The notes: a model not told the origin generated them from the letters alone. DNA of 51,818 nucleotides from Chloroflexota bacterium (GCA_003577355.1 QEUZ01000001.1:1-51818), one strand, 5' to 3'; shown: positions 10,102 to 46,545, counted from the first letter of the stretch. A program made the numbers and translations.

Positions 10102-10104
10102 CTC

Positions 10105-11828: not shown

Positions 11829-11927
11829 GGCTGGCGCTGCTGAGCTACCGATGGTGCACCTTCCTTCATGTGTGGGCGCTACTGTAGCGCAGAGTGGCGC
11901 CGCGTGTTCCGGCTCCTGCCGCTTGGC

Positions 11928-11943
11928 CTGTACGGACGTACAG
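11928..11943. promoter_or_regulatory. Palindrome CTGTACG-ga-CGTACAG in the divergent MFS/MFS intergenic region
   Basis: 7-bp perfect arms, located between the divergent starts at 11828 and 12049. A second inverted repeat, GGTCAC-N7-GTGACC, lies at 12001..12019. Confidence 0.35.
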
Positions 11944-12048
11944 TCGCGTGGGACGAACGGCCAGCGTGTTCTATTTCGTTCGAGTTCTAGGATTACCGCC
12001 GGTCACGGTCCGCGTGACCCTGAAGCATCTTCAGCGGGAGCCTTGCCG

Positions 12049-17822: not shown

Positions 17823-17888
17823 GCGGATTGGTCGTGTGCCGGACGGCGCAGGCGCGTGGCACGCGGCTGGTGATGACGGTTGCGGGTG

Positions 17889-20864
17889 ATGTCCGGTACC
17901 TCGACGCTGGCCAATCCAGGTCCCCGAACCAACCTGTTCGGACGCGATGCTGAGCTGGAGCAACTGCGTTCGGCCCTGCCTGAAGCCAATCTCGAACATG
18001 GCCGCCTCGTGCTGGTTGGCGGAGAAGCCGGAATCGGCAAATCGGCGCTGGTGGAGGCGTTCACGGCCGAGGCACGGCAGCGCGGCGCGGTCGTGCTAAC
18101 TGGGGCGTGCTACGACCTGGCCTCGGCGCCACCCTACGGCCCGTGGCTGGAAATCTCACGCGATTGGTCACTCGGCGCTGGCCGCCCGCCGCTGCCAGCC
18201 TTCATTACCGACCCACATGCATTGGAGGAGCTGGCTGGCACTGATGCGCTGCTGGAGGAGATCGCCGATTTCCTTGCGCGCGCCGCGCGCTATGCGCCGC
18301 TCGTGCTGGTGTTGGAAGACCTGCACTGGGCGGACTCGGCGAGCCTGGAGCTGTTGCGCTTCCTGGCGCGCCGGCTGGCGACCTTGCCGGTCATCATCGT
18401 CGCGACCTATCGCGATGTCGACCTGACGCCGAGCGACCCGCTCTATCGACTGCTGCCGCAACTGGTGCGGGAGTCGCGCGCCGTCCGGGTGATGCCTCGA
18501 CGATTGTCATCACGAGACGTCGAGCAGCTTGTCCACAGCCGGTACGCGTTGCGCGCTGACGACGAGGCGCGCTTAGTCGCCTGGCTCGACCGTTTCGCCG
18601 AGGGCAACCCGTTCTATATCGAGGAACTGCTCTACACGCTGGAGCACGACCGCGTGCTGCGCTCCGACCGCGAGGCCTGGGAACTGGGCGACCTGACGAC
18701 AGTGCGTGTGCCTGCGTTGGTCCGCCAAGTCATCGACGAACGCCTCGCCTGGCTGGGCGCAGACGCGCTGCAACTTGTGCAAGTAGCTGCGGTCATCGGG
18801 GCCGAGGTCCCGGTCGACTTATGGGGCGCCGTTACCGGCGCAGATGATGAAGCGCTGGCCCACGCAATCGAGGCCGCGCAACGGGCCTGGCTGCTTGAAG
18901 AAGCGCGTGGCAGGGATGCGTTCCGTTTCCGGCATGCCCTGATCCGTGAGGCGCTGTACAACAGTTTCGTGTTGCCGCGCAGGCGCGCCTGGCATCGCCG
19001 GGTGGCCGAAGCGCTCAGTGCCAACCCGAACCCCAACGCCGATGCCGTGGCACACCATTTTCAGCAAGCTGGCGACCCGCGAGCGGTGCTCTGGCTGGTG
19101 AAGGCTGGGGAACGGGCAACCCGTAACTATGCCTGGAGGATAGCGGTCGACCGGCTGCAAGCGGCGCTCGACCTGCTCGGCCAAGGGCCAGAAGAAGACC
19201 TGAAGCGGGCGCTGCTGCTGTACTACACCGGCATGCTGGCGCGGCGCTCCGACCCTCCGGACGCGGTGCGGCGTATGGAAGAAGCGCTACGCTTGGCCCG
19301 TTCCCTCGGCCTGCCGCGCCTGGTTGGCCTGACGACAGCCGACCTGGGGCTTGTGCACTGTATCGTTGGGCGCATTGCCGACGGGATCGACGAGCTCACC
19401 GAGGGTGTGCGGCTGCTGGACGAAGCCGGCGTCTGGACCGACCCCAGCGGCCTCGCCATCCCGGAGCCGGCGGCCGCGTTTGCGATGCCGTCGTTGTTGC
19501 CGGACCTTCGCTCGCGAGCGGCGCCGCTGGTCACGTGGCTGGCGGTGGCAGGGCGGCTGCAGGAAGCGGTCGAGGTTGGCCAGGCATTTGTCGCGCGCAT
19601 CCCGGATCATTCGCGGCAGGTGCGGTACCAGGATTTCTATGTGGCCTACATCGGCCTGGGTAACGCACTGATGATGCTTGGGCGACCAGAAGAAGCGCGT
19701 GCCGCACTGGACGCAGCACGCGCTGGGCATGTCGATGTAGCTCAAATGCCCTGGACGTATTTCCTGACGGAGATCGCCTACGTATCAATCTATCGGCTCG
19801 ACCATGCAAACGAACGCAACGCGCTGAACCAGCTGTTGCAAGAGATTTGGGAGCGCAGCACTGGCGCCACCGCGCGCTTGGCGCGCGGCCAAAGCCCCGC
19901 TGGCTCGGTCCGCTTGCAGTTCCTGCTTGGCAACTGGGATGTTGTAGATGACTGGGCGCGTTCTACTGGCGTCCGCGTCGGGCCTGGTGTCGGGCGGTTG
20001 TCTGGGTTGCGGCTGACCGCGGCAATCCGGTTCCACCGTGGGGCATTCGAGCAGGCCTGGGAGACGATCGAAGAGGCGCAACGGACATTCGACCTCCAGC
20101 GTTTCGGCAACAATTGGCTGGTGACTGTTACCGGGATCCAGGAAATCGCCGCCGAGCTGGCGTTGGAGCAGGGTGATCTCGTGCGCGCGGCGCACTGGAT
20201 CGACTTGCACTGGAGCTGGATCGAGCAGAGCGGCACGGTCATCCGGCGCGCCGAGCATGCCATGCTGCTAGCCCGCCATGCGGAGCTGCGCGGCGACATG
20301 GCCGAGGCGCGGCGACAGGCTGCGGTTGCGCTGGAGCGCGCGGCGAACCCCCGCCAACCGCTGGCGGTCTTGCGTGCCCAGCGCTTGGCTGCCCGCTATG
20401 CGGCTGGTTCCGGTCAACTCGAAGAGGCGGTTGCCCGCTTGGCGGTGGCACTCGACCTGTCCGTCGCCTGTGCCGTGCCGTTTGAACGGGCGTTGACGCA
20501 GGTTGCGCTCGCTGAATGCGCACTGCGCAAGCGCGACATGCAGCAGTTCCATGAGCGGGTCACCGATGCGCGTAGCGTCGCAGTGCACCTACGGGCCGAG
20601 CCGCTCCTGGCGCAGATCGCGGCGTTAGAGCGGCAGGCAGATGCGCCGCAGCGCACATGGAGTGGGACGCCTGCCGGGTTGTCTGAACGGGAATTGGATG
20701 TCCTACGCCTTGTCGCGCGCGGCATGACCGATGCAGAGGTGGCTGCTGCGCTATTTATCAGCCCGCGCACAGTGAGCGGTCACCTGCAATCGATCTACAA
20801 CAAACTCGGAATATCGTCGCGCACGGCTGCGACTGCCTTCGCCTACGAACGTGGGCTGGTCTGA
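17889..20864 (+). CDS. Large ATP-binding LuxR-family transcriptional regulator (P-loop NTPase + TPR-like repeats + C-terminal LuxR HTH)
   Basis: Walker A LVGGEAGIGKSALVEAF, Walker B LVLVLEDLHWAD, long helical repeat region, C-terminal LSERELDVLRLVARGMTDAEVAAALFISPRTVSGHLQSIYNKLGI. The track ORF starts at TTG 17880. ATG 17889 is preferred, but the two are not distinguishable from sequence. Confidence 0.9.
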   Translation: MSGTSTLANPGPRTNLFGRDAELEQLRSALPEANLEHGRLVLVGGEAGIGKSALVEAFTAEARQRGAVVLTGACYDLASAPPYGPWLEISRDWSLGAGRPPLPAFITDPHALEELAGTDALLEEIADFLARAARYAPLVLVLEDLHWADSASLELLRFLARRLATLPVIIVATYRDVDLTPSDPLYRLLPQLVRESRAVRVMPRRLSSRDVEQLVHSRYALRADDEARLVAWLDRFAEGNPFYIEELLYTLEHDRVLRSDREAWELGDLTTVRVPALVRQVIDERLAWLGADALQLVQVAAVIGAEVPVDLWGAVTGADDEALAHAIEAAQRAWLLEEARGRDAFRFRHALIREALYNSFVLPRRRAWHRRVAEALSANPNPNADAVAHHFQQAGDPRAVLWLVKAGERATRNYAWRIAVDRLQAALDLLGQGPEEDLKRALLLYYTGMLARRSDPPDAVRRMEEALRLARSLGLPRLVGLTTADLGLVHCIVGRIADGIDELTEGVRLLDEAGVWTDPSGLAIPEPAAAFAMPSLLPDLRSRAAPLVTWLAVAGRLQEAVEVGQAFVARIPDHSRQVRYQDFYVAYIGLGNALMMLGRPEEARAALDAARAGHVDVAQMPWTYFLTEIAYVSIYRLDHANERNALNQLLQEIWERSTGATARLARGQSPAGSVRLQFLLGNWDVVDDWARSTGVRVGPGVGRLSGLRLTAAIRFHRGAFEQAWETIEEAQRTFDLQRFGNNWLVTVTGIQEIAAELALEQGDLVRAAHWIDLHWSWIEQSGTVIRRAEHAMLLARHAELRGDMAEARRQAAVALERAANPRQPLAVLRAQRLAARYAAGSGQLEEAVARLAVALDLSVACAVPFERALTQVALAECALRKRDMQQFHERVTDARSVAVHLRAEPLLAQIAALERQADAPQRTWSGTPAGLSERELDVLRLVARGMTDAEVAAALFISPRTVSGHLQSIYNKLGISSRTAATAFAYERGLV

Positions 20865-22964: not shown

Positions 22965-23065
22965 TGACCGCAAACCCTTGCCCCCGACGTGACAAGCAAT
23001 CCATCGGCGTCTCGTGGCGCCTGACTGGGCGTCGCTGCGAGTAGCGCAAGTACAGGAGAACGGCA

Positions 23066-24576: not shown

Positions 24577-26241
24577 ATGGCCGAGTTGCCGGTGATTCTT
24601 GCGGTCGATGACGACCCAACTGTCCTCGCAGCCGTCTTCCGTGACTTGCAAGCGCGATATGGCGGGCGCTACCGCGTGTTGCGTGCCGAGTCCGGTGAGG
24701 TGGCGCTGGCGACCCTCAAGCAGCTCAACGTGCGTAACGCCCCGGTCGCCCTGCTGGTTGTCGACCAGCGCATGCCCGGCTTGACCGGTGTCGAGCTGCT
24801 GGCGGAGGCGGTCGCGCTCTATCCTGATGTGAAGCGCGTCCTGCTGACAGCTTACGCCGACACCACGGTGGCGATACGCGCAATCAACGATATCGGGCTC
24901 GACCACTACCTGCTCAAGCCGTGGGACCCGCCGGAAGAGCATCTCTACCCAGTGCTGGATGACCTGCTGGAGCAGTGGTCAGCGACGTACTTCCCTCCCT
25001 TTGAAGGCATTCGGATCATCGGGCACCGCTGGTCGCCACAGACGTTCCAGCTCAAGGATTTTCTTGCCCGCAATCTGGCGCCTTACCAATGGCTGGACAT
25101 TGAGAACAGCGCCGAGGCGCGCACATTGCTCGAACATACCGGCGTCGATCCACAGCAGCTGCCGGTCGTGATCCTGCCAGGGGGCGCTGTCATGGTCCAA
25201 CCCGGCCAAGCCGAGCTGGCCGAGCGCATCGGGCTGGACACGTCGGCATCCCTGCCGTTCTACGACTTGATCATCGTCGGGGCCGGTCCGGCTGGGCTGG
25301 CAGCGGCGGTCTACGGCGCGTCCGAGGGGTTGCGCACGCTGATCGTCGAGCGCAACGGGCCTGGCGGCCAGGCGAGCATGAGCTCGCGGATCGAGAACTA
25401 TCTCGGGTTCCCCGCCGGACTGAGCGGCGCTGACTTGGCACGGCGCGCCGTCGCGCAAGCCAAGCGCCTGGGGGCTGAGATCATGACTGGCGAAGTCGTC
25501 GGCGTCCGTCAGGATGGCCAGTATCGCATCGTGACATTGGCCGATGGGTCCGAAGTAAGCTGCCACGCTCTGCTGATCACTGCCGGAGTGAGCTACCGCC
25601 GGCTCGATGCCCCCGGCATCGAGCGGCTCACCGGCGCCGGCGTCTACTATGGCGGCGCGCTCTCCGAAGCCATCGCGACGCGCGGTGAACCGGTTTTCAT
25701 CGTCGGGGGCGGCAACTCCGCCGGACAAGCGGCGGTGCACTTTGCCAACTACGCGAGCTGCGTCACGATCGTGGTGCGCGGCGATGACCTGGGCAAGGCC
25801 GGTATGTCGCAGTACCTGATCGACCGCATCGAGCAGACGCCAAACATCCGTGTTTGGAAGAACGCCAGCGTTGTTGAGGCCTTGGGCGAGAGCCACTTGG
25901 AAGGGCTACGCATTGCCGACTCGGCAACTGGGCAAACGCACACCGTGCAGGCCTCGGCCTTGTTCATCTTCATCGGGGCCAAGCCGTACACCGAATGGGT
26001 TGCCGACCTGCTGGCGCACGATGAGGCGGGGTATCTGTTGACCGGGCCGGACCTGCCGTCGAGCCGCAACGGAGTGGCCCAGTGGCCGCTGCGCCGCCCT
26101 CCGTTCCTGTTGGAGACGAACGTTCCGGGCATCTTCACCGCTGGTGACATTCGCCACCGTTCGATCAAACGCATCGCGTCCGCAACGGGCGAGGGTGCGA
26201 TGGCGGTCTCGTTCGTCCATCAGTACTTGAGCACGTTGTAG
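24577..26241 (+). CDS. Fused response-regulator receiver / thioredoxin-reductase-like FAD-dependent oxidoreductase (no CxxC)
   Basis: Receiver motifs ILAVDDDP, LLVVDQRMPGLTG, LLTAYAD, YLLKPW. FAD motif IIVGAGPAGLAAAVYG, NAD(P)H motif VGGGNSAGQAA, C-terminal GIFTAGD. Start set at ATG 24577 (GGAGA 6 nt upstream). The track start at 24469 has AGGAGG only 3 nt upstream. Confidence 0.9.
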   Translation: MAELPVILAVDDDPTVLAAVFRDLQARYGGRYRVLRAESGEVALATLKQLNVRNAPVALLVVDQRMPGLTGVELLAEAVALYPDVKRVLLTAYADTTVAIRAINDIGLDHYLLKPWDPPEEHLYPVLDDLLEQWSATYFPPFEGIRIIGHRWSPQTFQLKDFLARNLAPYQWLDIENSAEARTLLEHTGVDPQQLPVVILPGGAVMVQPGQAELAERIGLDTSASLPFYDLIIVGAGPAGLAAAVYGASEGLRTLIVERNGPGGQASMSSRIENYLGFPAGLSGADLARRAVAQAKRLGAEIMTGEVVGVRQDGQYRIVTLADGSEVSCHALLITAGVSYRRLDAPGIERLTGAGVYYGGALSEAIATRGEPVFIVGGGNSAGQAAVHFANYASCVTIVVRGDDLGKAGMSQYLIDRIEQTPNIRVWKNASVVEALGESHLEGLRIADSATGQTHTVQASALFIFIGAKPYTEWVADLLAHDEAGYLLTGPDLPSSRNGVAQWPLRRPPFLLETNVPGIFTAGDIRHRSIKRIASATGEGAMAVSFVHQYLSTL

Positions 26242-26254
26242 TCTGGAGCGCATT

Positions 26255-27715
26255 ATGTCGACTGAGGCGGTTGATACGACCTATTCCCCCGAAGAGCTGC
26301 TGCGGCTGCTGCGCAACTCGACCTTGTTCGGCGACTTGGCGGAAGCCGACATGCTGCAGTTACTGGCTGAATCGAACATGCGCCACGTGCCAGACGGGGG
26401 GACACTCATCGAAGAAGGCGCGCCGGCAACCGGCATCTACGTTGTCGTCAACGGGGAGCTGGAGGTGCTGCGTAAGGCTGGCGATACCGATGTGCCGATG
26501 GCGGTGCGTGGCAAGGGGGAAGTTATCGGCGAGATGTCGTTGCTGGATGGCGCGCGTCGCAACGCCAGTGTGCGCGCTCGAACACCAGCAACGGTGCTCT
26601 CGATCCCCCGCTCCGCGCTGGAGGAGACCGTGCTGGACAACCCCGAAGCGCTGCTCACCGTGCTGCGCACGGTCGTCTCCCGGTTGCTGAGCGCCGAGGC
26701 GCACCTGGTGCAGCACCAGAAAATGGCGGCACTTGGCACAATGGCCGCTGGGCTGGCCCACGAGCTGAACAACCCGGCTGGGGCGCTGCAACGCAGTGCC
26801 GGGCAATTGCGCGACGCGATTGCCGGCTGGGAGCCGCTGGCACGCGAGCTGGGAGCTGCCGTCTCGGACGACCCCGACGGGCGTATCGACGACATTCGCA
26901 AACAGCTCGCCGAGCGCGGCAGGGAAATGGTCTGGCTCGACCCACTGGAGCGGAGCGACCGCGAGCAGGAGCTGCAAGCCTGGCTGGAACAGTTCGGCCT
27001 GACTGATGCCTGGAAGATCGCGCCACAGCTCGTCGATGGTGGTTGGGGCGTCGCCAGCCTGCAACGTGCCGTTGGCGAAGCGTCGCCGGCCGATGCTGGC
27101 GTCATCCTGCGCTGGCTGGCCGAAGGGCAGACGGTGTTCAGCTTGCTGCAGGAGGTGACCAACGCCGCCAAGGCAATCTCCGAGATTGTGACGGCGGTTA
27201 AGGCCTATACCCGGCTCGACCAGGCGCCGATCCAGGACGTGGACATACATGAGGGACTCGACATCGTGCTCTCGCTCATGCGCCACAAGCTGCGCGGTGT
27301 CACGGTGCTGCGGGAATACGCCTCCGGGCTTCCGCGGGTAACCGCCAACGCTACTGAGCTGAACCAGGTCTGGACGAACCTGATCGATAACGCACTCGAT
27401 GCGATGGAAGCCGGCGCACTGTCCGCAGGTACAGGGCAAACCAAGCGCGTCCTGACCCTTCGGACGGCGTTCGATGCTGATGGCGAGGCTATTCTGGTCG
27501 ATGTGATCGACTCTGGTCCGGGGATCCCGCCCGAGGTATGCAAGCGGATCTACGAGCCATTTTTCACAACGAAGCCGCCGGGCCAGGGAGTGGGGCTTGG
27601 GCTGAGCATTACCTACTCGATCATCCGGCGCCACGGCGGGACCATCCAGGTCGAATCGCAACCGGGTCGGACGGCCTTTACCGTCACGATCCCCATACGA
27701 GGCGAGGTCACATGA
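26255..27715 (+). CDS. Cyclic-nucleotide-binding-domain sensor histidine kinase
   Basis: N-terminal cNMP-binding fold (..GIYVVVNGELEVLRK...GEVIGEMSLLDGARRNASVRA..). H-box AAGLAHELNNPAG, N-box WTNLIDNALDA, G-boxes DSGPGI and GQGVGLGLS. Confidence 0.9.
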   Translation: MSTEAVDTTYSPEELLRLLRNSTLFGDLAEADMLQLLAESNMRHVPDGGTLIEEGAPATGIYVVVNGELEVLRKAGDTDVPMAVRGKGEVIGEMSLLDGARRNASVRARTPATVLSIPRSALEETVLDNPEALLTVLRTVVSRLLSAEAHLVQHQKMAALGTMAAGLAHELNNPAGALQRSAGQLRDAIAGWEPLARELGAAVSDDPDGRIDDIRKQLAERGREMVWLDPLERSDREQELQAWLEQFGLTDAWKIAPQLVDGGWGVASLQRAVGEASPADAGVILRWLAEGQTVFSLLQEVTNAAKAISEIVTAVKAYTRLDQAPIQDVDIHEGLDIVLSLMRHKLRGVTVLREYASGLPRVTANATELNQVWTNLIDNALDAMEAGALSAGTGQTKRVLTLRTAFDADGEAILVDVIDSGPGIPPEVCKRIYEPFFTTKPPGQGVGLGLSITYSIIRRHGGTIQVESQPGRTAFTVTIPIRGEVT

Positions 27716-30700
27716 GCGCCACAATCACCCGCACGACAGCAGCAGCAGCAGCAAGCGCGAACCTGCGTACCCGTGAACCCCGCCGCGGGATGGATGAGCG
27801 ACGCATCGTGACGGTGCTGTTCTGCGATGTCGTGCGCTCGTCGTATCTGGCGGAGCAGCTCGGCCCGGAGGACTGGGCCGATGTGATGCAAGAGGCGTTT
27901 GAGCGGCTGATCGAACCAGTGGAGCGGTACGACGGCTCGATCGGCCGGCTGATGGGCGACGCCATCCTGGCGTTTTTCGGCGCGCCGAACGCACATGAGG
28001 ATGACCCCCAGCGGGCGATCATGGCCGGGCTGGCGATACTCGACGCGATCCAGCCGTTGCGCGACCGTGTACTGCGGACCTGGGGCCTGGACTTCAACGT
28101 GCGTATCGGCATCAACACCGGCGTGCTCGTCGTGGGCGACTTCGGCTCGCGCGACTGGTTCGAGTACACCGCCATGGGAGACGCGATCAACCTGGCGGCC
28201 AAGATCCAGCAGGCAGGCCAGGGTGGCAGGGTGCATGTCGCGACGGCCACCTACCGGCTCACTGAACCACTGTTTGCGTTTGAGCCAGCAGGCGAGATTG
28301 AGATCGGTGGCGCAGGACGACGTGAAGCAGTCTACCGGGTCGTAGGCCAATTGGATGTCGCTGGCAAGCTGTGGGATGTCGCTGGCATGGGCGCGCCGCT
28401 AGTTGGGCGTGAGGCAGAGCTCGACATCCTGCGGCAGGCATTCGACCGGCTCTCGGAAGGGCAGGGCGGGATCATCTTCCTGGTCGGCGAAGCAGGGCTG
28501 GGCAAGAGCCGGCTACTGGACGAGCTGCGGCGCTACCGTGAAGCATCCGGCAAGCAAGGTGAGATCGGCTGGGTCGAAAACCGGCTCATCTCGTACGAGG
28601 CATCGCTGCCCTATGGCGCACTGCAATCGCGCTTCCGCAAATCGTTCGGCATTCAGCGTCATGACTCTCCGGAGGTCGTGCACACCAAGCTGAACCAGGT
28701 GCTGGCGCCATTCCCTGCCGACATCCGCGCGCGCGCAGTGACAGTCGTCGAGCGGGCGCTGTCGATCGGTGGGGATGGTCTCTTACCTGCGCCGTCCCCG
28801 GCGGAAGCGGAACGGGCGGGACAGGAGTTCCGCCGCGAGCTCTACAGCGTTGCGCTGCACCTGCTGCGTGGCTGGAACGGCGGCGGCCCGCTCGTCTTCG
28901 TCAGCGACGATCAACACTGGAGCGACGCACCGTCGGCCGATGTGCTGCTGCATGCCATGCAGCTTGTTGAGAGCATGCCGATCCTGTTTGTCTGTGCGCT
29001 GCGGCCGGAAACGCATCGCCCGGTCTGGAGCATGAAGGAAACGGCGCAAGCGCGTTACCCAGACCGGACCACCGAGATCCGCCTGCGCCCGCTGGAGTCG
29101 CAGGATAGTGCGCGGTTGATCGACGCGTTTCTGGGCGGCGGCGATGCGCCTGCCGAGTTGCGGCGGAGAATACTGGAGCGCGCGGAAGGTAACCCGCTGT
29201 TTGTTGAGGAGATGGTCCGTTCGCTCATCGACCGGGGATTGCTGGAAGCGTGCGGCGACGACGAAGGACTGTGCTGGAAGCCAGTTGCTGGCGCGGACCT
29301 GAGTAGCGTCGTCATTCCCGACAGCTTGCAAGGGTTGTTCCAGGAGCGGGTCGATCGGCTCGACCCGGTCGCGCGACAGGTGCTGCAGCAGGCCGCCGTC
29401 GTGGGGAGGACGTTCTACAAGATCGTGCTGGCAGAGCTCACTGACCCCAGCGTATCGCTGGACGATGTGCTGGAGACATTGAGCCGCGCCGACCTGATCC
29501 GAGAATCGAGCCAGGCCCCCGAACAGGAGTTCGCGTTCCGGCACCCACTCATTCTTGAGACGGTGTACCAGGCGATACCACGTCGCCGACGGCAGGAGTT
29601 CCACCTGCGGGTTGGGGAGGTGATCGAGCGCCTGTTTGCAACGCGACTGGACGAACGTGCTGGACGGATCGGCCACCACTACTACGAGGCGGCCGACCCA
29701 CGTGCTGTGGATTGGCTTGTGCGGGCGGCGGAGCAGGCCCAGCGCGTCTACGAGCCGAACGCTGTGCTGGAGGTGCTGCGGCGTGCTGAAGAGCTCGCAA
29801 CCAGGTTGAGCCTGCCAATGCCACCAGCGGCGTGTCTCCTGCGGGGGCACGCTCATGAGCTGACCGGCGACTATGATGCGGCCCGCGAGGACTTCCAGCA
29901 CGCGCTGGAAGTCGCGCGTGCTTCTGCGGATGCGCGCGCGGAGTGGGAAGCGTTGATCGGGCTGGGACTCGCCTGGTCAGAACGGGACTACCCGCGAGCG
30001 GGGCAACTGTTCCAACAGGCGCTCGCGCTGGCCCGCTCCATTGGCGACGATACCCTGCTAGCACGCAGCCTGAACCGGCTGGGGAACTGGTACTCAAACC
30101 TCGAGCAGCCTGACAAGGGGATTGAGGTCCACAGCGAAGCGCTGGAGATCTTCCACCGCGTTGGCAGCGAGGCTGGCACGTCGGAGACACTCGACCTGCT
30201 CGGTATCGCGCGCTTCCTGGCCGGTGACCTGCGCGCCAGCGCCGAGGTGTACGATGATGCGATCGCCCTATTCTCGCGCCTGGGAGACCGGCGTGGGCTG
30301 GCTTCCAGCCTGGCCATGCGGGTGCTGGCGACGGGTAGCGAGCAGAGCCTGACTGTTGACCCACGTAACGTCGCGCTGGACGACCTCGTGCGCGATGGTG
30401 AACGCGCGCTGGACCTGACGCGCGATATTCGCTGGCAAGCTGCTGAAGCGTTTACCAACTTCTGCCTGGCGTCGGCGCTGCACGTGCGCGGCGAGTTCAG
30501 CAAGGCGCTCACGTTCGGGGTCGAAGGGTTGCAAATTGCCGAGAGCATCGAACATCGCCAGTGGACCCTGGCAAGCAATGTCGCAATCGCTGCGGTCGAG
30601 TTCGACCTCGGCATGGCCTCGGCAGCCCGACAACGCTACGAATATGCGCTCGCGATCGCGCATGAGATCGGTTCAGTGCATTGGCGTCGTTCGGTCAGCG

Positions 30701-31203
30701 CGTTGCTCGCTTCAGTACTGATCGCCCAGGGCGCCTACGAAGACGCCCGACGTATGCTCGATTCCGTCGTCAGCGATAGCGCAGCGCCGACATCGTTGGC
30801 ACAGCGCGAAGGTTGCTATCATCGCGCCGTGTTGCGCCTCGCCACAGGTCAACCGCAGGCCGCACTGGATATCCTGGACCAGTTGGTCGATCTCACCCCT
30901 GGCAGCGAACGGCGACCGTCGGCACATGTGGGGTATCTGCGTGGACGGGCACTGACGGCGCTCGGTCGCGTGGACGAAGCCGAAGCTGCACTGCTCGCGG
31001 CGCGTCGTCGCGCCGAGTCCTTGGGGTTCCGCCCACTCTCCCTTGAAATTGAGCTGGCTCTTGCAGAGCTCTACACCCGGGTTGGGAGAGCTGCCGAGGC
31101 GGAGGATCCCAAGGCGCGTGCTGACGTCTGGCGCGCTGCTCTGGCTGCGGCCATCGATGATCCACAACTGCGCGCGCAATTTGTGGGTGTGGCCCTCGGG
31201 TGA
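27712..31203 (+). CDS. Class III adenylate/guanylate cyclase fused to P-loop NTPase and TPR repeats
   Basis: Start at ATG 27712 overlaps the kinase stop (ATGA). Cyclase motifs VTVLFCDVVRSS, GRLMGDAILAFFGAP, RIGINTGVLVVGD, YTAMGDAINLAAKIQ. Walker A VGEAGLGKSRLL. Long TPR-like C-terminus. The track ORF start at 27538 lies inside the kinase gene. Confidence 0.9.
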   Translation: MSATITRTTAAAAASANLRTREPRRGMDERRIVTVLFCDVVRSSYLAEQLGPEDWADVMQEAFERLIEPVERYDGSIGRLMGDAILAFFGAPNAHEDDPQRAIMAGLAILDAIQPLRDRVLRTWGLDFNVRIGINTGVLVVGDFGSRDWFEYTAMGDAINLAAKIQQAGQGGRVHVATATYRLTEPLFAFEPAGEIEIGGAGRREAVYRVVGQLDVAGKLWDVAGMGAPLVGREAELDILRQAFDRLSEGQGGIIFLVGEAGLGKSRLLDELRRYREASGKQGEIGWVENRLISYEASLPYGALQSRFRKSFGIQRHDSPEVVHTKLNQVLAPFPADIRARAVTVVERALSIGGDGLLPAPSPAEAERAGQEFRRELYSVALHLLRGWNGGGPLVFVSDDQHWSDAPSADVLLHAMQLVESMPILFVCALRPETHRPVWSMKETAQARYPDRTTEIRLRPLESQDSARLIDAFLGGGDAPAELRRRILERAEGNPLFVEEMVRSLIDRGLLEACGDDEGLCWKPVAGADLSSVVIPDSLQGLFQERVDRLDPVARQVLQQAAVVGRTFYKIVLAELTDPSVSLDDVLETLSRADLIRESSQAPEQEFAFRHPLILETVYQAIPRRRRQEFHLRVGEVIERLFATRLDERAGRIGHHYYEAADPRAVDWLVRAAEQAQRVYEPNAVLEVLRRAEELATRLSLPMPPAACLLRGHAHELTGDYDAAREDFQHALEVARASADARAEWEALIGLGLAWSERDYPRAGQLFQQALALARSIGDDTLLARSLNRLGNWYSNLEQPDKGIEVHSEALEIFHRVGSEAGTSETLDLLGIARFLAGDLRASAEVYDDAIALFSRLGDRRGLASSLAMRVLATGSEQSLTVDPRNVALDDLVRDGERALDLTRDIRWQAAEAFTNFCLASALHVRGEFSKALTFGVEGLQIAESIEHRQWTLASNVAIAAVEFDLGMASAARQRYEYALAIAHEIGSVHWRRSVSALLASVLIAQGAYEDARRMLDSVVSDSAAPTSLAQREGCYHRAVLRLATGQPQAALDILDQLVDLTPGSERRPSAHVGYLRGRALTALGRVDEAEAALLAARRRAESLGFRPLSLEIELALAELYTRVGRAAEAEDPKARADVWRAALAAAIDDPQLRAQFVGVALG

Positions 31204-31300: not shown

Positions 31301-31753
31301 ATGGCGATCGAGTTTCAGACCGAGGCGCAGCAAGCGGTCTATCAAAAGATTCGGCCCTGGTTTCAAGAGCTTTTCGGCACGTTTGCATCGTTCAGCGAGG
31401 AGCGGCCAACCTGCTTCGTGCTGGTGGGTTCGGCTTGGACAAACACGACGGTTATCCCCTGGGGTGATGACGACGCGACGATCTGCACCCGCGCCTGGCT
31501 GGTGACGGGAGCGGAGCTGAGTGCCGACCTGCTGCTGTATCTCCTACGCGAGAACGCAGATATGCGCTTTGGCGCATTCAGTATCGACGCTGACGACGAC
31601 ATCCTGTTCGAGCACACGATTGTTGGCTCGACGTGTGACAAGGACGAGCTGCGTTCGTCAGTGTTGGCCGTTGCCCAAACTGCCGATGCCTATGATGACG
31701 AGATCGTTGCCCGCTTTGGCGGAACGCGGATGATCGACCGGCAGAGCGGGTAG
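31301..31753 (+). CDS. YbjN-like domain protein (putative sensory-transduction/chaperone-like fold)
   Basis: ..LLLYLLRENADMRFGAFSIDADDDILFEHTIVGSTCDKDELRSSVLAVAQTADAYDDEIVARFGG.. matches the pattern I associate with YbjN-domain proteins. Confidence 0.65.
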   Translation: MAIEFQTEAQQAVYQKIRPWFQELFGTFASFSEERPTCFVLVGSAWTNTTVIPWGDDDATICTRAWLVTGAELSADLLLYLLRENADMRFGAFSIDADDDILFEHTIVGSTCDKDELRSSVLAVAQTADAYDDEIVARFGGTRMIDRQSG

Positions 31754-32085: not shown

Positions 32086-33807
32086 GTGGCGAAGACTGGG
32101 CGTCAGCTCGCTGACGAGAACTATGCTCGTTGGCAAATGTTTTACAAGAAGGGATTGATCAGCCGGCGCACGATGCTGAAGGCCGCCATGGTCTGGGCCG
32201 GAGCTGGCACAGTCGGAAGCGTGCTCGCCGCATGCGGTGGGGATGACGACGACGATTCGCCAGGCGCCGTGCCAACCGCAACGACGGCGGGCGCTGCGCC
32301 AACCGCGACTACGGCGCAAGCAGCTCCGACGAACACACCGGCCGCCCCGGCGATGGGTGGCACGCTACGGGTGGCGTTGGCCGAGAGCGACCTGCCAACG
32401 ATGGACCCGCACATGCACAACCTGCGCACGGGGATCATCACCTTCTACCACATGTTCGACAACCTTGGCGTACGTAACCAGGAAACCCTGGTGATCGAAC
32501 CATGGCTGGCCGAGAGCTGGGAGGTGGTTGAACCAACGCGCTGGCGCATGAAGCTGCGCGAGGGCGTCAAGTTCCATGACGGTAGCGATTTCACCGGCGC
32601 GACCGTGAAATGGAACTGGGAGCGCATTACCAACCCCGAGCAGAAGAGCCCGCAGATGGCGAACCAGGCAGCGGTTGCCGGGGTGGAGCTGATCGACGAT
32701 TACACGATCGATGTCATTACCCATAACCCGTACCCGATCTTCACTGAGCGGCTCCAGAACTTCCAGATGATCTCCGAGAAGGTTGCCGAGAAAGGTGACG
32801 AGTTCCTTGCGGAGAACCCAATCGGCACTGGCCCCTACAAGTTCGTTGAATGGAAAAAGGGCCAGGAAATCGTCATGACCGCCAATACCGAGTATTGGAA
32901 CCCGGACGTGACGATGGCGTACACCGACGTCATCCTGCGGATCATCCCCGGTGTTCCGACCCAGTTGGCCGAGCTACTGGCCGAAACGGTCGACATCATC
33001 CGTGTCGTGCCGTTCGACCAGATGCAGGCGGTTACCAACTCAGGGGTTGCAACCCCTAAGGTGCAGCCGATCCTGCGGGTCCAGTTCGTGCGGCTGGATG
33101 CGAAGGGACGCGGCACCCCGGACAACCCGTTCACCGACGTGCGGGTGCGCAACGCCGCCAACCATGCGCTGGACATCGATACCTACATCGAGACATTGCA
33201 GGCCGGTGGCGACCGCACCCCGGCCATGGTGAACCCGAAGCACTTTGGGTTTGACCCGACGATCGAACCACATACATACGACCCGGACCTCGCCAAGCAA
33301 TTGTTGGCGGAGGCTGGCTATGCCGACGGGTTTACCGTGAAGTGGATGACCGGTGCATCGCTGATGCCGAACGCCACCCAGGTGGAGCAGGCAATGCAGC
33401 GAGACCTGGCGGCGGTAGGCATCAACACCGAGCTGAACTATCTCAGTGACGGGAACCTGTTCACGACCTTGCACAACGAGGGCAAGGGCGACCCGATGAT
33501 GAGCTACTCCTGGGGTTCGTACTCGGTGTTCGACACGGACGGCATCTACTGGGACATGTTCCACAGTGACTCGATCTTCAGCTACTACAACAACCCCGAA
33601 TTTGATGCGTTGATCGAAGAAGCGCGCGGGATCATGGACTCCGAGAAACGCAAGGAGCTCTACTCGCAGGCACAGCGCATCATCCGCGATGAAGCGCCGG
33701 TCCTGTTCATGTGGGGCTTGCACACTGTGTGGGGTGTGAGCAACAAGGTGGACTGGAGCCCAGCGCCAGACGAAATCGACCGCTACTTCTGGGCCAAGCC
33801 GGCCTAA
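32086..33807 (+). CDS. ABC transporter substrate-binding lipoprotein, peptide/nickel (family 5) type
   Basis: AGAGGAGG 5 nt upstream of the GTG. Twin-arginine-like SRRTMLKAAMV plus lipobox VLAAC. Family-5 SBP sequence throughout. Confidence 0.92.
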   Translation: MAKTGRQLADENYARWQMFYKKGLISRRTMLKAAMVWAGAGTVGSVLAACGGDDDDDSPGAVPTATTAGAAPTATTAQAAPTNTPAAPAMGGTLRVALAESDLPTMDPHMHNLRTGIITFYHMFDNLGVRNQETLVIEPWLAESWEVVEPTRWRMKLREGVKFHDGSDFTGATVKWNWERITNPEQKSPQMANQAAVAGVELIDDYTIDVITHNPYPIFTERLQNFQMISEKVAEKGDEFLAENPIGTGPYKFVEWKKGQEIVMTANTEYWNPDVTMAYTDVILRIIPGVPTQLAELLAETVDIIRVVPFDQMQAVTNSGVATPKVQPILRVQFVRLDAKGRGTPDNPFTDVRVRNAANHALDIDTYIETLQAGGDRTPAMVNPKHFGFDPTIEPHTYDPDLAKQLLAEAGYADGFTVKWMTGASLMPNATQVEQAMQRDLAAVGINTELNYLSDGNLFTTLHNEGKGDPMMSYSWGSYSVFDTDGIYWDMFHSDSIFSYYNNPEFDALIEEARGIMDSEKRKELYSQAQRIIRDEAPVLFMWGLHTVWGVSNKVDWSPAPDEIDRYFWAKPA

Positions 33808-33821
33808 GTCTCAGCAGGCCC

Positions 33822-33852
33822 GCGGGGCGCTCGACACAGGAGAGCGCCCCGC
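33822..33852 (+). other. Intercistronic stem-loop after the SBP gene
   Basis: GCGGGGCGCTC-9 nt-GAGCGCCCCGC, perfect 11-bp stem with no U-tract. This is the usual position for a transcript-stabilising or attenuating hairpin in ABC operons. Confidence 0.5.
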
Positions 33853-33907
33853 TCCTGGGTGCGGAGCGAGCCGGGCGAGCGCCACCGGCTTGAAGGAGGC
33901 GTGGCCG

Positions 33908-34837
33908 TTGGGTGCCTATGTCGTCAACCGACTGATTCAGATGTTTGTCGTCATCGTCGGGATCTCGGTGATCGTGTTTGTGATTACGAACATGATCGGC
34001 GACCCGGTGAATGTCCTGCTGCCGCCGGAAACGCCGTACGAACAGCGCGAGATCTTCCGAGAGCAGATGGGGTTCAATCGTCCGTTGGTCGTGCAGTATC
34101 TCGACTTCGCGGTCGATGCCGTGCGCGGCGACTTCGGCAATTCCTTCCGGACCGCGCGGCCGGCGACGACGATCGTCCTCGAACGTATGCCTGCCACATT
34201 GTTGCTGACGGTTTCGGCAACCCTCGTCGCAACGCTGATCGCGATCCCCATGGGGATTATCTCGGCGTACAAGCGGCATTCGATCTGGGACAACCTGACA
34301 ACGATTTTTGTCGTCACTGGCCAGGCGATGCCGATTTTCTGGCTGGGGTTATTGTTGATCATTATCTTCGGTGTGAACCTGAAGTGGTTGCCGCCCTCCG
34401 GCTACGGCGACTTCGGCATCGAACGTTTGAAGCACCTGATCCTGCCGATGGCGGTGCTGGGTTTCTTCCTGGCGCCGGTAACGGAGCGTCTCGTGCGTTC
34501 TGGCATGCTCGACGCACTCTCCCAGGATTACGTGCGCACGGCCCGCGCCAAAGGATTATCCGAGCGGATCGTCCTCTTTCGGCATGCGTTGCGAAATACG
34601 ATCATTCCGGTCATCACCGTGCTGGGGTTGCAGTTCGGACAGTTGCTGGGTGGCGCGGTGATTACCGAGAGCGTGTTCGCCTGGCCGGGGGTCGGGTTAT
34701 TGGCGATCGATTCCATCCGCAATTCTGATTTCCCGGTGACGCAAGCGGTCGTGGTGATCCTCGCCGTGCTCATCTCATTCGTGAACCTGTCCGTCGATCT
34801 GATCGTCGGAGTTCTGGACCCGCGCATACGGCGCTAA
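33908..34837 (+). CDS. ABC transporter permease (DppB/OppB-like)
   Basis: Typical N-terminus (M)GAYVVNRLIQMFVVIVGISVIVF and EAA-loop region ..YVRTARAKGLSERIVLFRHALRN... TTG at 33908 has GAAGGAGG 8 nt upstream. The track uses TTG 33890. Confidence 0.9.
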   Translation: MGAYVVNRLIQMFVVIVGISVIVFVITNMIGDPVNVLLPPETPYEQREIFREQMGFNRPLVVQYLDFAVDAVRGDFGNSFRTARPATTIVLERMPATLLLTVSATLVATLIAIPMGIISAYKRHSIWDNLTTIFVVTGQAMPIFWLGLLLIIIFGVNLKWLPPSGYGDFGIERLKHLILPMAVLGFFLAPVTERLVRSGMLDALSQDYVRTARAKGLSERIVLFRHALRNTIIPVITVLGLQFGQLLGGAVITESVFAWPGVGLLAIDSIRNSDFPVTQAVVVILAVLISFVNLSVDLIVGVLDPRIRR

Positions 34838-34893
34838 CCGCACCCTGATGGGCAGTCGGGGTGTGCTGCCGGCCCCAAGGAGGATTGAGATCG

Positions 34894-35829
34894 ATGGCGA
34901 GTGTTGGCACCTCTACTCCGGAGACGACAGCGACCCTGTTCTCTCCGAACCGCGTGCGACGGCGCACCCTGCGTGGTGTGCTTGCAGCCGCCTGGAAGCT
35001 ACGTCTATCGGTGGCGGGTGCGACCGTCCTGATACTCCTGATCTTGATGGCGATCTTTGCCCCGCTCTTGACCCCCTACACCACCAATGAAGGCTCGATC
35101 CGCAACCGGTTACAACCGCCGGTTTGGCAAGAGGGAGGCACCTGGAGCCACCCGCTCGGTACCGACGGGATCGGCCGTGACTACGCGACCCGGTTGCTGT
35201 ACGGAGCGCGCGTCGCTCTGGCGGTCGGGCTGTTGGCCACCCTGATCTCCGGCGTCATCGGCGTCTTTTTTGGAGTCATCGCGGGCTACTTTGGCGGGAA
35301 GATCGATACGCTCATCTCAACGCTTGTGAATATTATGTTGACGTTCCCGTTCATCCTGCTCGCCTTGTGCATCATTGCCGTGCTGGGATCGAGCTTCACG
35401 AACGTCGTGTTCGTGTTGGGCATTGGCGCTTGGCCGATCTACACGCGGGTGATGAAGTTCGAGGTCGAGCGCATCAAGTCGCTGGAGTACATGTCTGCGG
35501 CGCGGGTTATCGGGCTGCGGAACTCGCGCATGATCTGGCGGCATGTCATGCCGAACCTGGTCAACACGATTATCGTGCTCGGCACCGTGCAGGTGGCGCG
35601 CCTGATCATTGCCGAGGCATTCCTCAGCTATCTTGGCTTGGGTATTCAGCCGCCAACTCCGACCTGGGGCCAGATGCTGCAGGAGTCGATCGCATTCTCG
35701 TTTACCTGGAGCGACATTTGGCTGCCAACCTTACCGGGCCTGGCGATCTTTATCACAACACTCTCGATCAATTTCGTCGGTGATGGTTTGCGTGACCTCA
35801 TTGACCCGCGGGAACGTGCTGTGCTGTAG
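34894..35829 (+). CDS. ABC transporter permease (DppC/OppC-like)
   Basis: ATG 34894 has AAGGAGG 9 nt upstream. ..LGTDGIGRDYATRLLYGARV.. and ..EYMSAARVIGLRNSRMIWRHVMPN.. motifs. Confidence 0.92.
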   Translation: MASVGTSTPETTATLFSPNRVRRRTLRGVLAAAWKLRLSVAGATVLILLILMAIFAPLLTPYTTNEGSIRNRLQPPVWQEGGTWSHPLGTDGIGRDYATRLLYGARVALAVGLLATLISGVIGVFFGVIAGYFGGKIDTLISTLVNIMLTFPFILLALCIIAVLGSSFTNVVFVLGIGAWPIYTRVMKFEVERIKSLEYMSAARVIGLRNSRMIWRHVMPNLVNTIIVLGTVQVARLIIAEAFLSYLGLGIQPPTPTWGQMLQESIAFSFTWSDIWLPTLPGLAIFITTLSINFVGDGLRDLIDPRERAVL

Positions 35830-39324: not shown

Positions 39325-39864
39325 TCAGTCGAACCAACCCACCGGTATGCCGAACTCTTCGGCGGTGCAGCGCAGGATATCGTCGGTGACACGGTCCACG
39401 AGCGCGCGCTTTTGGGGGCTGTCGGGACCGTTGAGTGTGATCAGGTCTTCGTTGAACAGAGTCTTGCTGACATCAACCGCGCATGCGCTCGCCTGATCGA
39501 TGATCGGGCCCATGAGCCAAACCAGTTGGTCCGGCAGGTTTTCTTCCAGGCAGCGGGTGAGGATCTCGTTGGTCAGCGAGGGGTCATCCTGCGAAAGGGT
39601 ATAGAGCAGGCCCGGCCCGATGTTGCGTTCGATGCATGCGCTGACGCTATCGCCAGGGACGATTGCGACCGTCGGAGCGATGAAGGGCGTCGCTGTTGGT
39701 GTGGCCGTTGGCGTCGGCGTCGGCGTCGGTCGGGGTGTCGGCGTGCTGGTGGCTGTCGGCGTCGGTGGCAGGGGTGTGGGCGTGGGTGTTGGGTCAGCAC
39801 TGAACGGCCCGCAGGCCACGATGCTCACCAGCACCGTTCCCACAATGACAACGCCTGGTTTCAT
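39325..39864 (-). CDS. Lipoprotein of unknown function with Pro/Thr-rich linker
   Basis: Start at ATG 39864 (GGAGGA upstream). MKPGVVIVGTVLVSIVAC lipobox, (PT)n linker, then a four-Cys globular domain. Confidence 0.7.
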   Translation of the reverse strand: MKPGVVIVGTVLVSIVACGPFSADPTPTPTPLPPTPTATSTPTPRPTPTPTPTATPTATPFIAPTVAIVPGDSVSACIERNIGPGLLYTLSQDDPSLTNEILTRCLEENLPDQLVWLMGPIIDQASACAVDVSKTLFNEDLITLNGPDSPQKRALVDRVTDDILRCTAEEFGIPVGWFD

Positions 39865-39942
39865 GGCGTGGTCCTCCAGACTGCAGGTGTATCCGGCCGT
39901 CGGTCGCCGTCGCAGGATCATACTCTTCGCGATCAAGCGAGT

Positions 39943-39971
39943 TTGACCACCGCACTGCCGCGCCGCAGAAT
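39943..39971 (+). promoter_or_regulatory. Candidate promoter for the 40045 gene
   Basis: TTGACC-N17-CAGAAT. Confidence 0.4.
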
Positions 39972-40044
39972 GGGGACGCTGCGGAGGGCGCGCTGGACTT
40001 CAACGCCGGCGCGGGACGCCAGCGTGGGCTGGGAGGGATGTGGG

Positions 40045-40578
40045 ATGCGGATATTCTTGATCGTCGCGGCGTCGTTCGGAGGGTTTCTGGTCGTCTGTTG
40101 CGTGCTTGGCATCTTCGTGGGGTTGCCGCAGCTGCGTGATGAGCTGGAGTCGGAGGTGCACGAGGCCGTCTCTACCGAGGTCGCGCGGCGGATTCCGGCC
40201 ATCCCTGGAACTGGCGCAGAGCCGGGGGAGTACATCATCACCCAGGAATCACTCCAGGCGAGTATTCGCGAGAACGCTGATAACGAGCGCGATGCTGAGA
40301 ACCTTTTCGTGCGGATTACGCCGGCCCAAGTGGAAGTCGGGCTTGTTTCGCGTGGGCAGGATGCCACCTACTCTGGGGTGCCAGCTGCCGAGAACGGCCA
40401 GTTGGTGATGCATGATATGGATTCCAACAACCGGTTCTTCGAGTTTGTACTGTCACCAGACCGCCTTGGCCGGACAATCGCCGAGGCGGTCAACAGCTAC
40501 CTTGCGCAAAACGGGCTCCAACTGCAGAGCCTGGAGCTGCAGGATGGTCAGATGGTGCTGATCACCGTCGAAGCCTGA
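40045..40578 (+). CDS. Membrane-anchored hypothetical protein
   Basis: MRIFLIVAASFGGFLVVCCVLGIFVGLP... N-terminal anchor. GGGAGGG 7 nt upstream. The long upstream part of track ORF 39412..40578 is antisense to the lipoprotein gene and Arg/Gly-rich. Confidence 0.6.
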   Translation: MRIFLIVAASFGGFLVVCCVLGIFVGLPQLRDELESEVHEAVSTEVARRIPAIPGTGAEPGEYIITQESLQASIRENADNERDAENLFVRITPAQVEVGLVSRGQDATYSGVPAAENGQLVMHDMDSNNRFFEFVLSPDRLGRTIAEAVNSYLAQNGLQLQSLELQDGQMVLITVEA

Positions 40579-46117: not shown

Positions 46118-46545
46118 ATGTGGACCGCCTTCTGTTCCAGTCCCAGCCACCAGCGTAGCGAACGAATCACCCCGTACCCGTCGCGCCTGTACCGACGCGA
46201 AACCATTCTACGGAGTTGAATGCGGTAGGTTGATCAACCATTGGTCACGACCGCGCTAGTACAGCGGTGCCAGAGATCTTCCTGTACGTACAGTAATGCA
46301 CGCCTGTGTCGCGTGCCCGGCGACGCCTGAGCGGCGCGCAGCCGGGGTGCCATGCTTTCCTTGTCTCTTGCGTGCGTGCTGGTGCGTCACACTGTGGCCC
46401 TGGCCGGTCAGGTTGCGCCGCATCGTATCGGCGGCCGGGGCGCTCATGGGTCCGTGCCGATCGAGCACTGCTGTGGTTTCTATAATTGGGCACGGCGGGA
46501 GCGCGTCCCGGCGACTGCGTAATGGGGTTGGGGAGGAACGCGGGC

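Follow-up and report, generated by a model that had tools for sequence, protein, structure and literature searches.

Evidence for a kinase and receiver-flavoprotein pair, with a candidate cyclic nucleotide input, in a three-gene locus of a Chloroflexota genome

Could a bacterial second messenger act on a redox enzyme by way of a histidine kinase, along a main route that involves no transcription factor? This question is raised by three adjacent genes in a stretch of 51,818 nucleotides from a Chloroflexota bacterium (GCA_003577355.1, QEUZ01000001.1:1-51818; hereafter the window, meaning this whole stretch). Gene A codes for a receiver domain fused to a flavoprotein of the thioredoxin reductase (TrxR) fold, gene B for a soluble histidine kinase with a cyclic nucleotide-binding (CNB) sensor, and gene C for a class III nucleotidyl cyclase domain followed by a P-loop NTPase and tetratricopeptide repeats (TPR). 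An earlier interpretation made from the DNA alone (the sequence-only reading) had named these domains, all of which were recovered by Pfam, and had proposed that they constitute a complete circuit in which the cyclase makes the nucleotide, the kinase reads it and the flavoenzyme is controlled by phosphorylation. On the comparative evidence presented here, this cyclase to CNB-kinase to receiver-flavoenzyme circuit is the best reading of the locus, with a probability of about one half, and its individual links differ in strength.

The pairing of the kinase with the receiver had originally been proposed from adjacency in a single genome. A scan of species-representative genomes, using the receiver (REC) domain plus linker as the query, yielded at least 597 candidate loci, the best 80 of which were analysed. 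The full gene A architecture is present in all 80, and these are distributed across the Chloroflexota, Cyanobacteria, Acidobacteriota, Verrucomicrobiota, Gemmatimonadota, Myxococcota, Actinomycetota and Deinococcota. When the neighbourhoods were counted in the 55 loci that have 2 kb or more of flanking sequence on each side, a homologue of the gene B kinase core (39-53% identity) was found within 1.5 kb of gene A in 46, on the same strand in 43. Pfam detects HATPase_c in each of 64 gene A-adjacent kinases and cNMP_binding in 56 of them. The kinase is also the sole widely shared neighbour, as all-against-all clustering of the open reading frames (ORFs) outside the A and B genes gave no other cluster present in more than 7 of the 80 loci.

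Inspection of the alignments shows that the residues needed for phosphotransfer are retained on both sides. In the receiver, the pocket comprising D11, D12, D63, T91, Y111 and K114 is invariant among gene A homologues, with Asp63 (codon 24763..24765) as the phospho-acceptor. In the kinase, H169 is invariant in 64/64 pair-adjacent kinases and 120/120 homologues, as are, in the same two sets, N379, D419/G421/G423, F436 and G445/G447/G449 of the N, G1, F and G2 boxes. The conservation of kinase adjacency across genomes argues that B and A are cognate partners, and its extent over at least eight phyla, together with the invariant phosphotransfer residues, gives the proposed pairing a comparative footing. 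Hence, a cognate two-component relationship between B and A can be predicted with high confidence.

The domain organization of gene B supports the further claim that it is a soluble kinase whose sole sensor is a cNMP-binding fold: Pfam identifies cNMP_binding (residues 43-126) and HATPase_c (366-481), this architecture is common to all of the top 120 homologues, and no membrane-like segment was found in protein B, or in proteins A and C. The AlphaFold2 (AF2) model (pLDDT 87.5) shows a β-barrel CNB domain with a C-helix, from which one continuous helix (residues 130-202) extends and bears His169, the return helix of the hairpin spanning 278-323. The alignment to the histidine kinase CckA (5idj) falls into two pieces (152-184 and 293-481) on account of a family-specific insertion at the tip of the dimerization and histidine phosphotransfer (DHp) hairpin. 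The spacing from the H-box to the N-box is confined to 205-210 residues in all 120 homologues. The DHp-tip insertion of the CNB-kinases is itself conserved, being about 75-108 residues long with D235, E237, W243 and L244 nearly invariant.

With regard to gene A, Pfam recognizes Response_reg (7-120) and Pyr_redox_2 (229-540), and the AF2 model (pLDDT 84.6) displays a receiver of the (βα)5 fold followed by a middle domain and a TrxR-like module. The middle domain, with which Pfam gave no match, is predicted to adopt a β-α-β-α-β-β-α topology typical of a glutaredoxin (Grx)- or thioredoxin-like fold; an RWS stands where the CxxC would normally be, the cis-Pro position is taken by a conserved Pro196, and G149, S153, N166, P169, D174, P196, G203 and P209 are invariant in it. 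The C-terminal part matches thioredoxin reductases in the PDB with E = 1e-48 and, in Foldseek searches with the protein A model, target-normalised template modelling (TM) scores of 0.80-0.86 to these enzymes were obtained. Structures of TrxR-like ferredoxin/flavodoxin-NADP+ reductases (TRLF; 3ab1, 2zbw and 3lzw) are far weaker matches (E = 1e-18 to 1e-11). The FAD-binding motifs (GxGxxG, as GAGPAG, and GD) and the NAD(P)H-binding motif GGGNSAG are conserved throughout the family. The description of gene A as TrxR-like is thus borne out as far as the fold is concerned.

This similarity has a bearing on the chemistry, as the closest database entries, which are full-length homologues of 62-85% identity, are annotated for instance as "thioredoxin reductase (NADPH)" or as "fused response regulator/thioredoxin-disulfide reductase". 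If these names were taken at face value, gene A would be an ordinary thioredoxin-disulfide reductase with a receiver added, a view with which the best PDB and NCBIfam matches agree. However, the redox CxxC is replaced by G359...S363 at the aligned positions (25651..25665), and the motif is absent from the active-site position in all 120 close homologues (two carry a CxxC at about 185, in the linker). The linker plus TrxR-like part was searched against 1.84 billion cluster representatives, and the best 150 were typed with local hidden Markov models and a 10-protein Pfam check; the active-site CxxC is missing in 149 of these 150 representatives. Moreover, protein A has only two cysteines, neither of them conserved, and its score against TIGR01292 (thioredoxin-disulfide reductase) is 229.2 bits as opposed to a cut-off of 343.45. 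The lack of the CxxC and the score below the cut-off indicate that the names describe the fold and not the chemistry. Gene A was therefore rejected as a true thioredoxin reductase, an identity that now appears extremely improbable; by sequence criteria, its output enzyme is almost certainly of another kind.

Comparison with TrxB and AhpF clarifies what sort of enzyme it might be. Protein A shares with these the two-Rossmann FAD/NAD(P)H fold and, like AhpF, carries a domain of the thioredoxin fold ahead of the TrxR-like core; full-length AhpF is among its top Foldseek matches. Unlike them, it lacks redox-active cysteines in both the Trx-like and the TrxR-like parts, has gained an N-terminal receiver, and contains a conserved insertion of about 19 residues (~487-511) with W503 and R507.

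The N-termini of the same 150 core representatives fall into three types: approximately 64 have REC, approximately 46 a cNMP_binding-type fold, and approximately 39 have none or are fragments. This interchangeability of the N-terminal regulators suggests that the Grx-like and TrxR-like core is an output rather than a sensor, and the pattern of REC-fused, CNB-fused and unfused versions supports, at the level of domain architecture, a regulated enzyme with swappable sensors. It also counts against the converse possibility, namely that sensing is done by the flavoprotein, whose FAD/NAD(P)H state would reflect cellular redox and modulate receiver phosphorylation or dephosphorylation, with protein A as a phosphate sink or redox-gated modulator and the true output lying elsewhere, for example in a NarL-type regulator: occurrence of the core without any N-terminal signalling domain, or with a fused CNB-like domain, fits a regulated enzyme better. 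In addition, the receiver precedes the flavoprotein, which is the usual arrangement in regulators whose effector is at the C-terminus. Certain observations do lean towards the converse possibility and away from the proposed circuit. Clustering of the neighbouring ORFs in the 80 loci did not find a third conserved gene that might hint at the substrate of the flavoenzyme, nor one for a partner beside the pair. Further, the window contains an orphan NarL-type regulator (REC and GerE; 45449..46150, minus strand) with no adjacent kinase, divergent from a gene for an extracytoplasmic function (ECF) sigma factor (46486..47238, plus strand), and the same pair recurs about 8 kb from the triad of locus L083 (21621-22334, minus strand; 22657-23175, plus strand). 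This regulator, 14 kb off, might be phosphorylated by the kinase as well, or its position might just reflect shared synteny. The statement that the receiver of gene A is the only one nearby accordingly holds within about 14 kb and fails beyond that. On balance, a sensory flavoprotein is improbable, and control of a flavoenzyme by the receiver is preferred.

The one-component relatives of gene A (for example P0126, P0133, P0167 and P0217) combine the same cysteine-free effector (40-50% identity) with a CNB domain in place of the receiver, without a phosphorelay. These might be thought to establish cyclic nucleotide control of the enzyme, and this argument was considered and found to be weak: the phosphate-binding arginine of the cassette is missing from the CNB domains of these fusions, which may thus have a ligand other than a cyclic nucleotide, and they furnish no proof of general cyclic nucleotide control of the enzyme, which counts against extending the proposed circuit to the family at large. 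The CNB domain of the window kinase is no nearer to these fusions than it is to Escherichia coli CRP. Among other variants of the family, P0121 (714 residues) has REC, the TrxR-like core and a C-terminal cNMP_binding domain. It may be a real fusion of A and B; alternatively, the call may be a read-through or may have been truncated where a contig ends. Locus L081 encodes a second gene A paralogue (2907-4613; 568 residues, 40% identity over the full length) with no Pfam receiver match; the true pair lies about 14 kb downstream of this paralogue, and a Flavodoxin_5 gene about 1 kb downstream of it.

Several other genes accompany the pair in particular lineages. A VTT/DedA-rhodanese fusion lies directly upstream of the gene A homologue in six loci (L037, 8778-9920; L075, 9049-9975; L022, 1523-2707; L034; L059; L069), several of them in metagenome-assembled genomes of Verrucomicrobiota or Acidobacteriota, and gives a weak hint of sulfur chemistry for the flavoenzyme. 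In three loci devoid of the cyclase (L088, 9403-9810; L090, 9402-9827; L091, 9402-9827), the gene immediately after that of the CNB-kinase encodes a CoA_binding_2 protein of 135-141 residues, which could constitute a third, lineage-specific component of the module. In L088 the pair also adjoins a gene for a 989-residue MFS/HEAT/cNMP_binding protein (9883-12852). A zf-UBP domain is present as a separate ORF in L088 (7588-7860) and as an N-terminal extension of several CNB-kinases among P0480, P0488, P0489, P0497 and P0501.

The nature of the input can be addressed through the phosphate-binding cassette of the kinase, GEMSLLDGARRNASVRA, which occupies residues 92-108 of gene B (26528..26578). 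As in receptors of the CRP and PKA type, with which gene B shares the PF00027 fold and a Gly-Glu...Arg-x-Ala cassette (29% identity to E. coli CRP), the Gly-Glu, the arginine aligned to CRP Arg82 and the alanine are all present; it differs from these receptors in having a histidine kinase as the effector and an asparagine in place of Ser/Thr after the arginine, and its ligand is a prediction. A GE..R[S/N/T/M]A cassette is found in 108 of the 120 closest kinases. Across the wider set of kinases adjoining gene A homologues, the canonical cassette arginine is present in only 7 of 63, and is kept solely by kinases of the Chloroflexota type, to which the window kinase belongs. A cyclase-AAA-TPR gene lies within 10 kb of 5 of these 7 canonical-cassette kinases and of 0 of the 56 non-canonical ones (Fisher p = 3e-6, a test that ignores phylogeny, with nearly all the positives in one clade), and one of the two canonical-cassette loci without a cyclase has just 1.8 kb of flank. 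The retention of the canonical cassette in the kinase CNB domains of this lineage makes a 3',5'-cyclic nucleotide their most likely input. The asparagine where Ser or Thr is usual and the concentration of nearly all the positives in one clade both weigh against this; for the window locus, sequence comparison nonetheless renders a cyclic nucleotide input to the kinase somewhat more probable than its absence.

The linkage of the pair to the cyclase, which is the next step of the proposed circuit, also recurs beyond the window. The neighbourhood comparison found the triad in at least 8 other contigs and in at least 4 gene orders, so that the outcome which the sequence-only reading had named as refuting it, a failure of the three genes to occur together elsewhere, is not what is observed. 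The A-B-C order of the window is repeated in L001, L083/L084 and L086, and in part in L082, the closest relative, whose kinase and cyclase genes likewise overlap by an ATGA. In L002 the cyclase gene is upstream of the pair and divergent from it, and L028, L073 and L081 also have it upstream, there in the same orientation as the pair. Identity to gene C among the Chloroflexota-type contigs is 37-71%. The nearest relatives bearing a name are metagenome-assembled genomes of Thermomicrobiales/Chloroflexota. When the search was seeded from the cyclase side, the pair was linked to homologues of 70%, 48%, 45%, 42% and 39% identity, and two homologues of 42% and 40% identity had no linked pair. The persistence of linkage through rearrangement argues for a functional connection.

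The same data must be set against a simpler view, in which only the kinase and receiver-flavoprotein pair is functional and gene C is a chance neighbour, a Chloroflexota paralogue, while the kinase reads a nucleotide made by other cyclases or a different ligand altogether. The gene C family is very large and paralogous (5429 matches at E <= 1e-30), and the close paralogues P0279 and P0288 are unlinked to the pair. Sampling from the kinase side gave four long contigs with a canonical cassette, three of which have A and B without a cyclase within 8 kb; the fourth, L089, has the cyclase and a CNB-kinase without gene A. The rule that a canonical cassette means an adjacent cyclase is consequently weakened, the cyclase being present in one of the four kinase-seeded loci. 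Moreover, most genomes, including most of those from other phyla, have the pair without a nearby cyclase and a kinase whose CNB-like domain lacks the phosphate-binding arginine, from which it follows that the core module is not intrinsically a cyclic nucleotide circuit. These findings speak for the simpler view and against the full circuit. On the other side, linkage is maintained in at least four gene orders and with cyclases of as little as 37-48% identity, the ATGA overlap retained in L082 implies translational coupling, no cyclase is near a kinase whose cassette is non-canonical (0 of 56), and L089 has the cyclase with such a kinase even in the absence of gene A. Taken together, the simpler view is unlikely, although it is the most serious of the alternatives. 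The cyclase link proposed by the sequence-only reading thus stands for the Chloroflexota-type lineage, in which the triad recurs with a canonical cassette, and does not extend elsewhere, where the pair is without a cyclase. The cyclase is an add-on to the pair, met only in Chloroflexota-type relatives.

Whether gene C could supply the nucleotide depends on its own active site. Pfam identifies Guanylate_cyc (32-204), AAA_16 (229-427) and TPR_12/TPR_2/TPR_MalT (~706-1123), a layout of a P-loop NTPase followed by a TPR-type array that is characteristic of STAND proteins; no LuxR/GerE helix-turn-helix was detected in it by Pfam. In an alignment of 119 sequences, the metal-binding D39 and D83, along with R131, T153 and N160, are present in 119/119, as is the Walker A lysine of the NTPase. 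Two positions depart from the norm in a manner unfavourable to the proposed role. The substrate-lysine position is Arg79 (27946..27948), with arginine in 118 of the 119 family-wide, and the transition-state arginine position is Lys164 (28201..28203), lysine being confined to the window and its three closest relatives with arginine in 115/119. As a result, neither canonical substrate pair (Lys with Asp/Thr for ATP; Glu with Cys/Ser for GTP) is found in gene C, which has Arg79/Thr153, and its Arg79/Lys164 residue pair is not known from any characterised class III cyclase. Arginine at the substrate lysine and lysine at the transition-state arginine leave both product and activity uncertain; catalysis by gene C is plausible from its sequence, and its rate may be low, with weak activity, inactivity or another product being possible.

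These substitutions are what would be expected if the cyclase were impaired or made a non-standard product, gene C then being mainly a STAND scaffold or sensor, acting for instance with a LuxR-type STAND regulator, and not the source of the ligand. The recurrence of an AAA_16-GerE protein beside such cyclases, including a paralogue without the kinase pair in L087, could be accommodated by this idea. In contrast, pseudo-enzymes usually lose residues of the kind that gene C keeps in all 119 sequences, namely both metal-binding aspartates, R131, T153 and N160, and lysine is a conservative replacement that preserves the positive charge. Mycobacterium tuberculosis Rv0386, which has a Gln/Asn substrate pair, offers a parallel. 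Rv0386 combines a cyclase with an AAA ATPase, TPR and LuxR in a single polypeptide with non-canonical substrate selection (PMC3466318), and it is active despite its non-canonical substrate residues (PMC3466318, citing Castro et al. 2005). Gene C resembles it in its cyclase, STAND-like ATPase and TPR body and in its non-canonical substrate residues, and differs in the lack of a LuxR helix-turn-helix (a separate AAA_16-GerE gene being nearby), in the Arg/Thr substrate pair and in its coupling to a two-component pair. An impaired or non-standard cyclase is hence judged rather improbable, and gene C may, with about even odds, be the source of the nucleotide read by the kinase.

Taken as a whole, the preferred reading, that of a cyclase, CNB-kinase and receiver-flavoenzyme circuit, envisages a cytoplasmic chain encoded by one A-B-C unit. 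In the Chloroflexota-type lineage, the STAND NTPase and TPR body of gene C, which is translationally coupled to gene B, would respond to a cue and gate the cyclase, whose product (cAMP, cGMP or another) would be the input to the kinase, this input being most likely a 3',5'-cyclic nucleotide. It would be read by the CNB sensor of B, which one continuous helix joins to the His169-bearing DHp helix. B is then predicted from comparison with other systems to phosphorylate Asp63 of A, and the phosphorylated receiver would alter the activity of the attached Grx-like and TrxR-fold FAD/NAD(P)H module, probably by changing how the dimer is arranged or by affecting the domain rotation on which enzymes of the TrxR fold depend. 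Protein A would accordingly act as an NAD(P)H-dependent flavoenzyme without redox cysteines. In other lineages, the pair would operate with no cyclase close by, and the CNB-like sensor of its kinase is non-canonical.

The organization of the locus is compatible with such a unit. The ORF coordinates confirm the tight packing of three same-strand genes that had been reported, with a 13-nt gap between A and B and an ATGA overlap (cacATGAgc) of the gene B stop and the gene C start (Table 1). The frame of gene A is open already from 24469; the ATG chosen as its start has a GGAG 8 nt upstream, and its homologues all begin at the corresponding MAELP/MAQLP/MAKPV position. Gene B has a GGAG of its own. 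No terminator-like site was found within 24577..31203, promoter and terminator scans of the window gave only background levels, and an Rfam scan of the window returned no match. The spacing, the ribosome-binding sites and the absence of a terminator fit the three genes being one operon, as judged from these signals.

Table 1. Coordinates in the window of the three genes, their predicted domains and sites, and a possible accessory gene
Feature	Coordinates	Strand	Evidence
Gene A (554 aa; ATG to TAG): REC, Grx-like fold and TrxR-like flavoprotein; putative enzymatic-output response regulator	24577..26241	+	Pfam, homologues, AF2 model
REC domain, residues 1-130	24577..24966	+	Alignment, AF2 model
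Cysteine-free glutaredoxin/thioredoxin-like fold, residues 145-218	25009..25230	+	AF2 model, alignment
TrxR-fold FAD/NAD(P)H domain pair, residues 228-552	25258..26232	+	PDB, Foldseek
Gene B (486 aa; ATG to TGA): soluble histidine kinase with N-terminal CNB sensor	26255..27715	+	Pfam, homologues, AF2 model
CNB β-barrel, residues 12-128	26288..26638	+	PF00027, 69.4 bits (cut-off 27.5)
Phospho-acceptor His169, H-box AHELNNP	26759..26761	+	Invariant in alignments
Family-specific helical insertion at DHp hairpin tip, ~residues 203-277	26861..27085	+	AF2: four short helices
Catalytic ATP-binding (CA) domain, residues 326-481	27230..27697	+	HATPase_c
Gene C (1163 aa; ATG to TGA): class III cyclase domain, STAND-type P-loop NTPase and TPR array	27712..31203	+	Pfam
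Cyclase homology domain, residues 28-212	27793..28347	+	CyaB (3r5g), E = 7e-25; PF00211, 75.4 bits (cut-off 21.9)
AAA_16 P-loop NTPase, residues 229-427, Walker A GEAGLGKS	28396..28992	+	PF13191, 75.6 bits
TPR/MalT-like repeats, residues ~706-1123	29827..31080	+	TPR_12, TPR_2, TPR_MalT
LuxR-type STAND regulator (AAA_16 ... GerE, 994 aa), possible accessory, 3.7 kb upstream	17880..20864	+	Pfam

Among the genes around the triad, the LuxR-type STAND regulator upstream is the one that recurs. Its full-length homologues (36-39% identity) are found beside the module in L001 (2748-5615), L002 (406-3288, minus strand), L083 (3527-6394) and L086 (2582-5495, minus strand), and that of L087 (13664-16558) adjoins the paralogous cyclase mentioned above. 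By analogy, the LuxR-STAND gene and gene C together look like a split version of an Rv0386-type cyclase-ATPase-TPR-LuxR protein. The recurrence of this regulator by the module makes a transcriptional branch possible, and the contention that the output is a redox enzyme and not transcription, which was drawn from the fusion of the receiver to a flavoprotein, may thus be incomplete.

The remaining neighbours were not retained as members of the module. A YbjN-like ORF (TY-Chap1/YbjN; 31301..31753) does follow gene C by 97 nt, as had been noted, and was rejected as a member of the cassette since tblastn found no homologue of it in 87 related loci. Of two upstream genes tried as members, BenE is conserved in only one close relative, L081, and an aminotransferase in no related locus. 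The YbjN-like gene is followed by an ordinary operon for a peptide/nickel-type ABC transporter (SBP_bac_5 and two BPD_transp_1; 32086..35829, plus strand) unrelated to the module. Two further ORFs (39412..40578, plus strand, 388 residues; 50354..51787, minus strand, 477 residues) have no Pfam match at E <= 1e-5; they might be genes that are still uncharacterised, or else spurious reading frames due to the high GC content.

The logic of the proposed output has well-known precedents. In response regulators with enzymatic outputs such as CheB, PleD/WspR and RpfG, phosphorylation of an aspartate in the N-terminal receiver controls a fused enzyme and not a DNA-binding domain. Gene A would follow the same logic, differing in that its output is an NAD(P)H flavoenzyme and its kinase is cytoplasmic and predicted to be CNB-gated. 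All of the parts belong to known kinds, i.e., a two-component system, cyclic nucleotide signalling and TrxR-fold flavoenzymes, and no new category is involved. With respect to previous work, the combination of REC with thioredoxin reductase is mentioned in the census by Galperin et al. (PMC5847659), and cNMP_binding is among the listed sensor domains of kinases (PMC9953108). A search of the literature, in which subscription journals were largely outside the scope, found only such census mentions and no functional study of either protein type or of the pair. The REC-TrxB-type regulators, which have the same architecture as gene A (62% full-length identity to the "fused response regulator/thioredoxin-disulfide reductase" of Scytonema hofmannii), have been catalogued only, under a name that is misleading given the absence of the redox CxxC; their CNB-kinase partner, Grx-like middle domain and cyclase link are not described in the literature found. 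A more general proposition, that of a widespread and previously undescribed two-component system which controls a cysteine-free NAD(P)H flavoenzyme by phosphorylation and has in the Chloroflexota been wired to a STAND-gated cyclase, its main route involving no transcription factor, is put forward tentatively, as somewhat less probable than the circuit at the window locus.

These observations have implications for the annotation and biology of the family. Thousands of database entries designated as thioredoxin reductases without catalytic cysteines would represent a misannotation, and the REC-fused, CNB-fused and unfused versions of the core provide a natural series for studying both the substrate of the enzyme and its N-terminal gating. 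As the proteins are soluble and the predictions specific, the proposed circuit would be cheap to test. If the proposed circuit is correct, a histidine kinase would join the bacterial effectors of cyclic nucleotides, as a biochemically new type in a combination otherwise found only in domain censuses, and a response regulator acting on an NAD(P)H flavoenzyme would tie a second messenger to redox metabolism without transcription.

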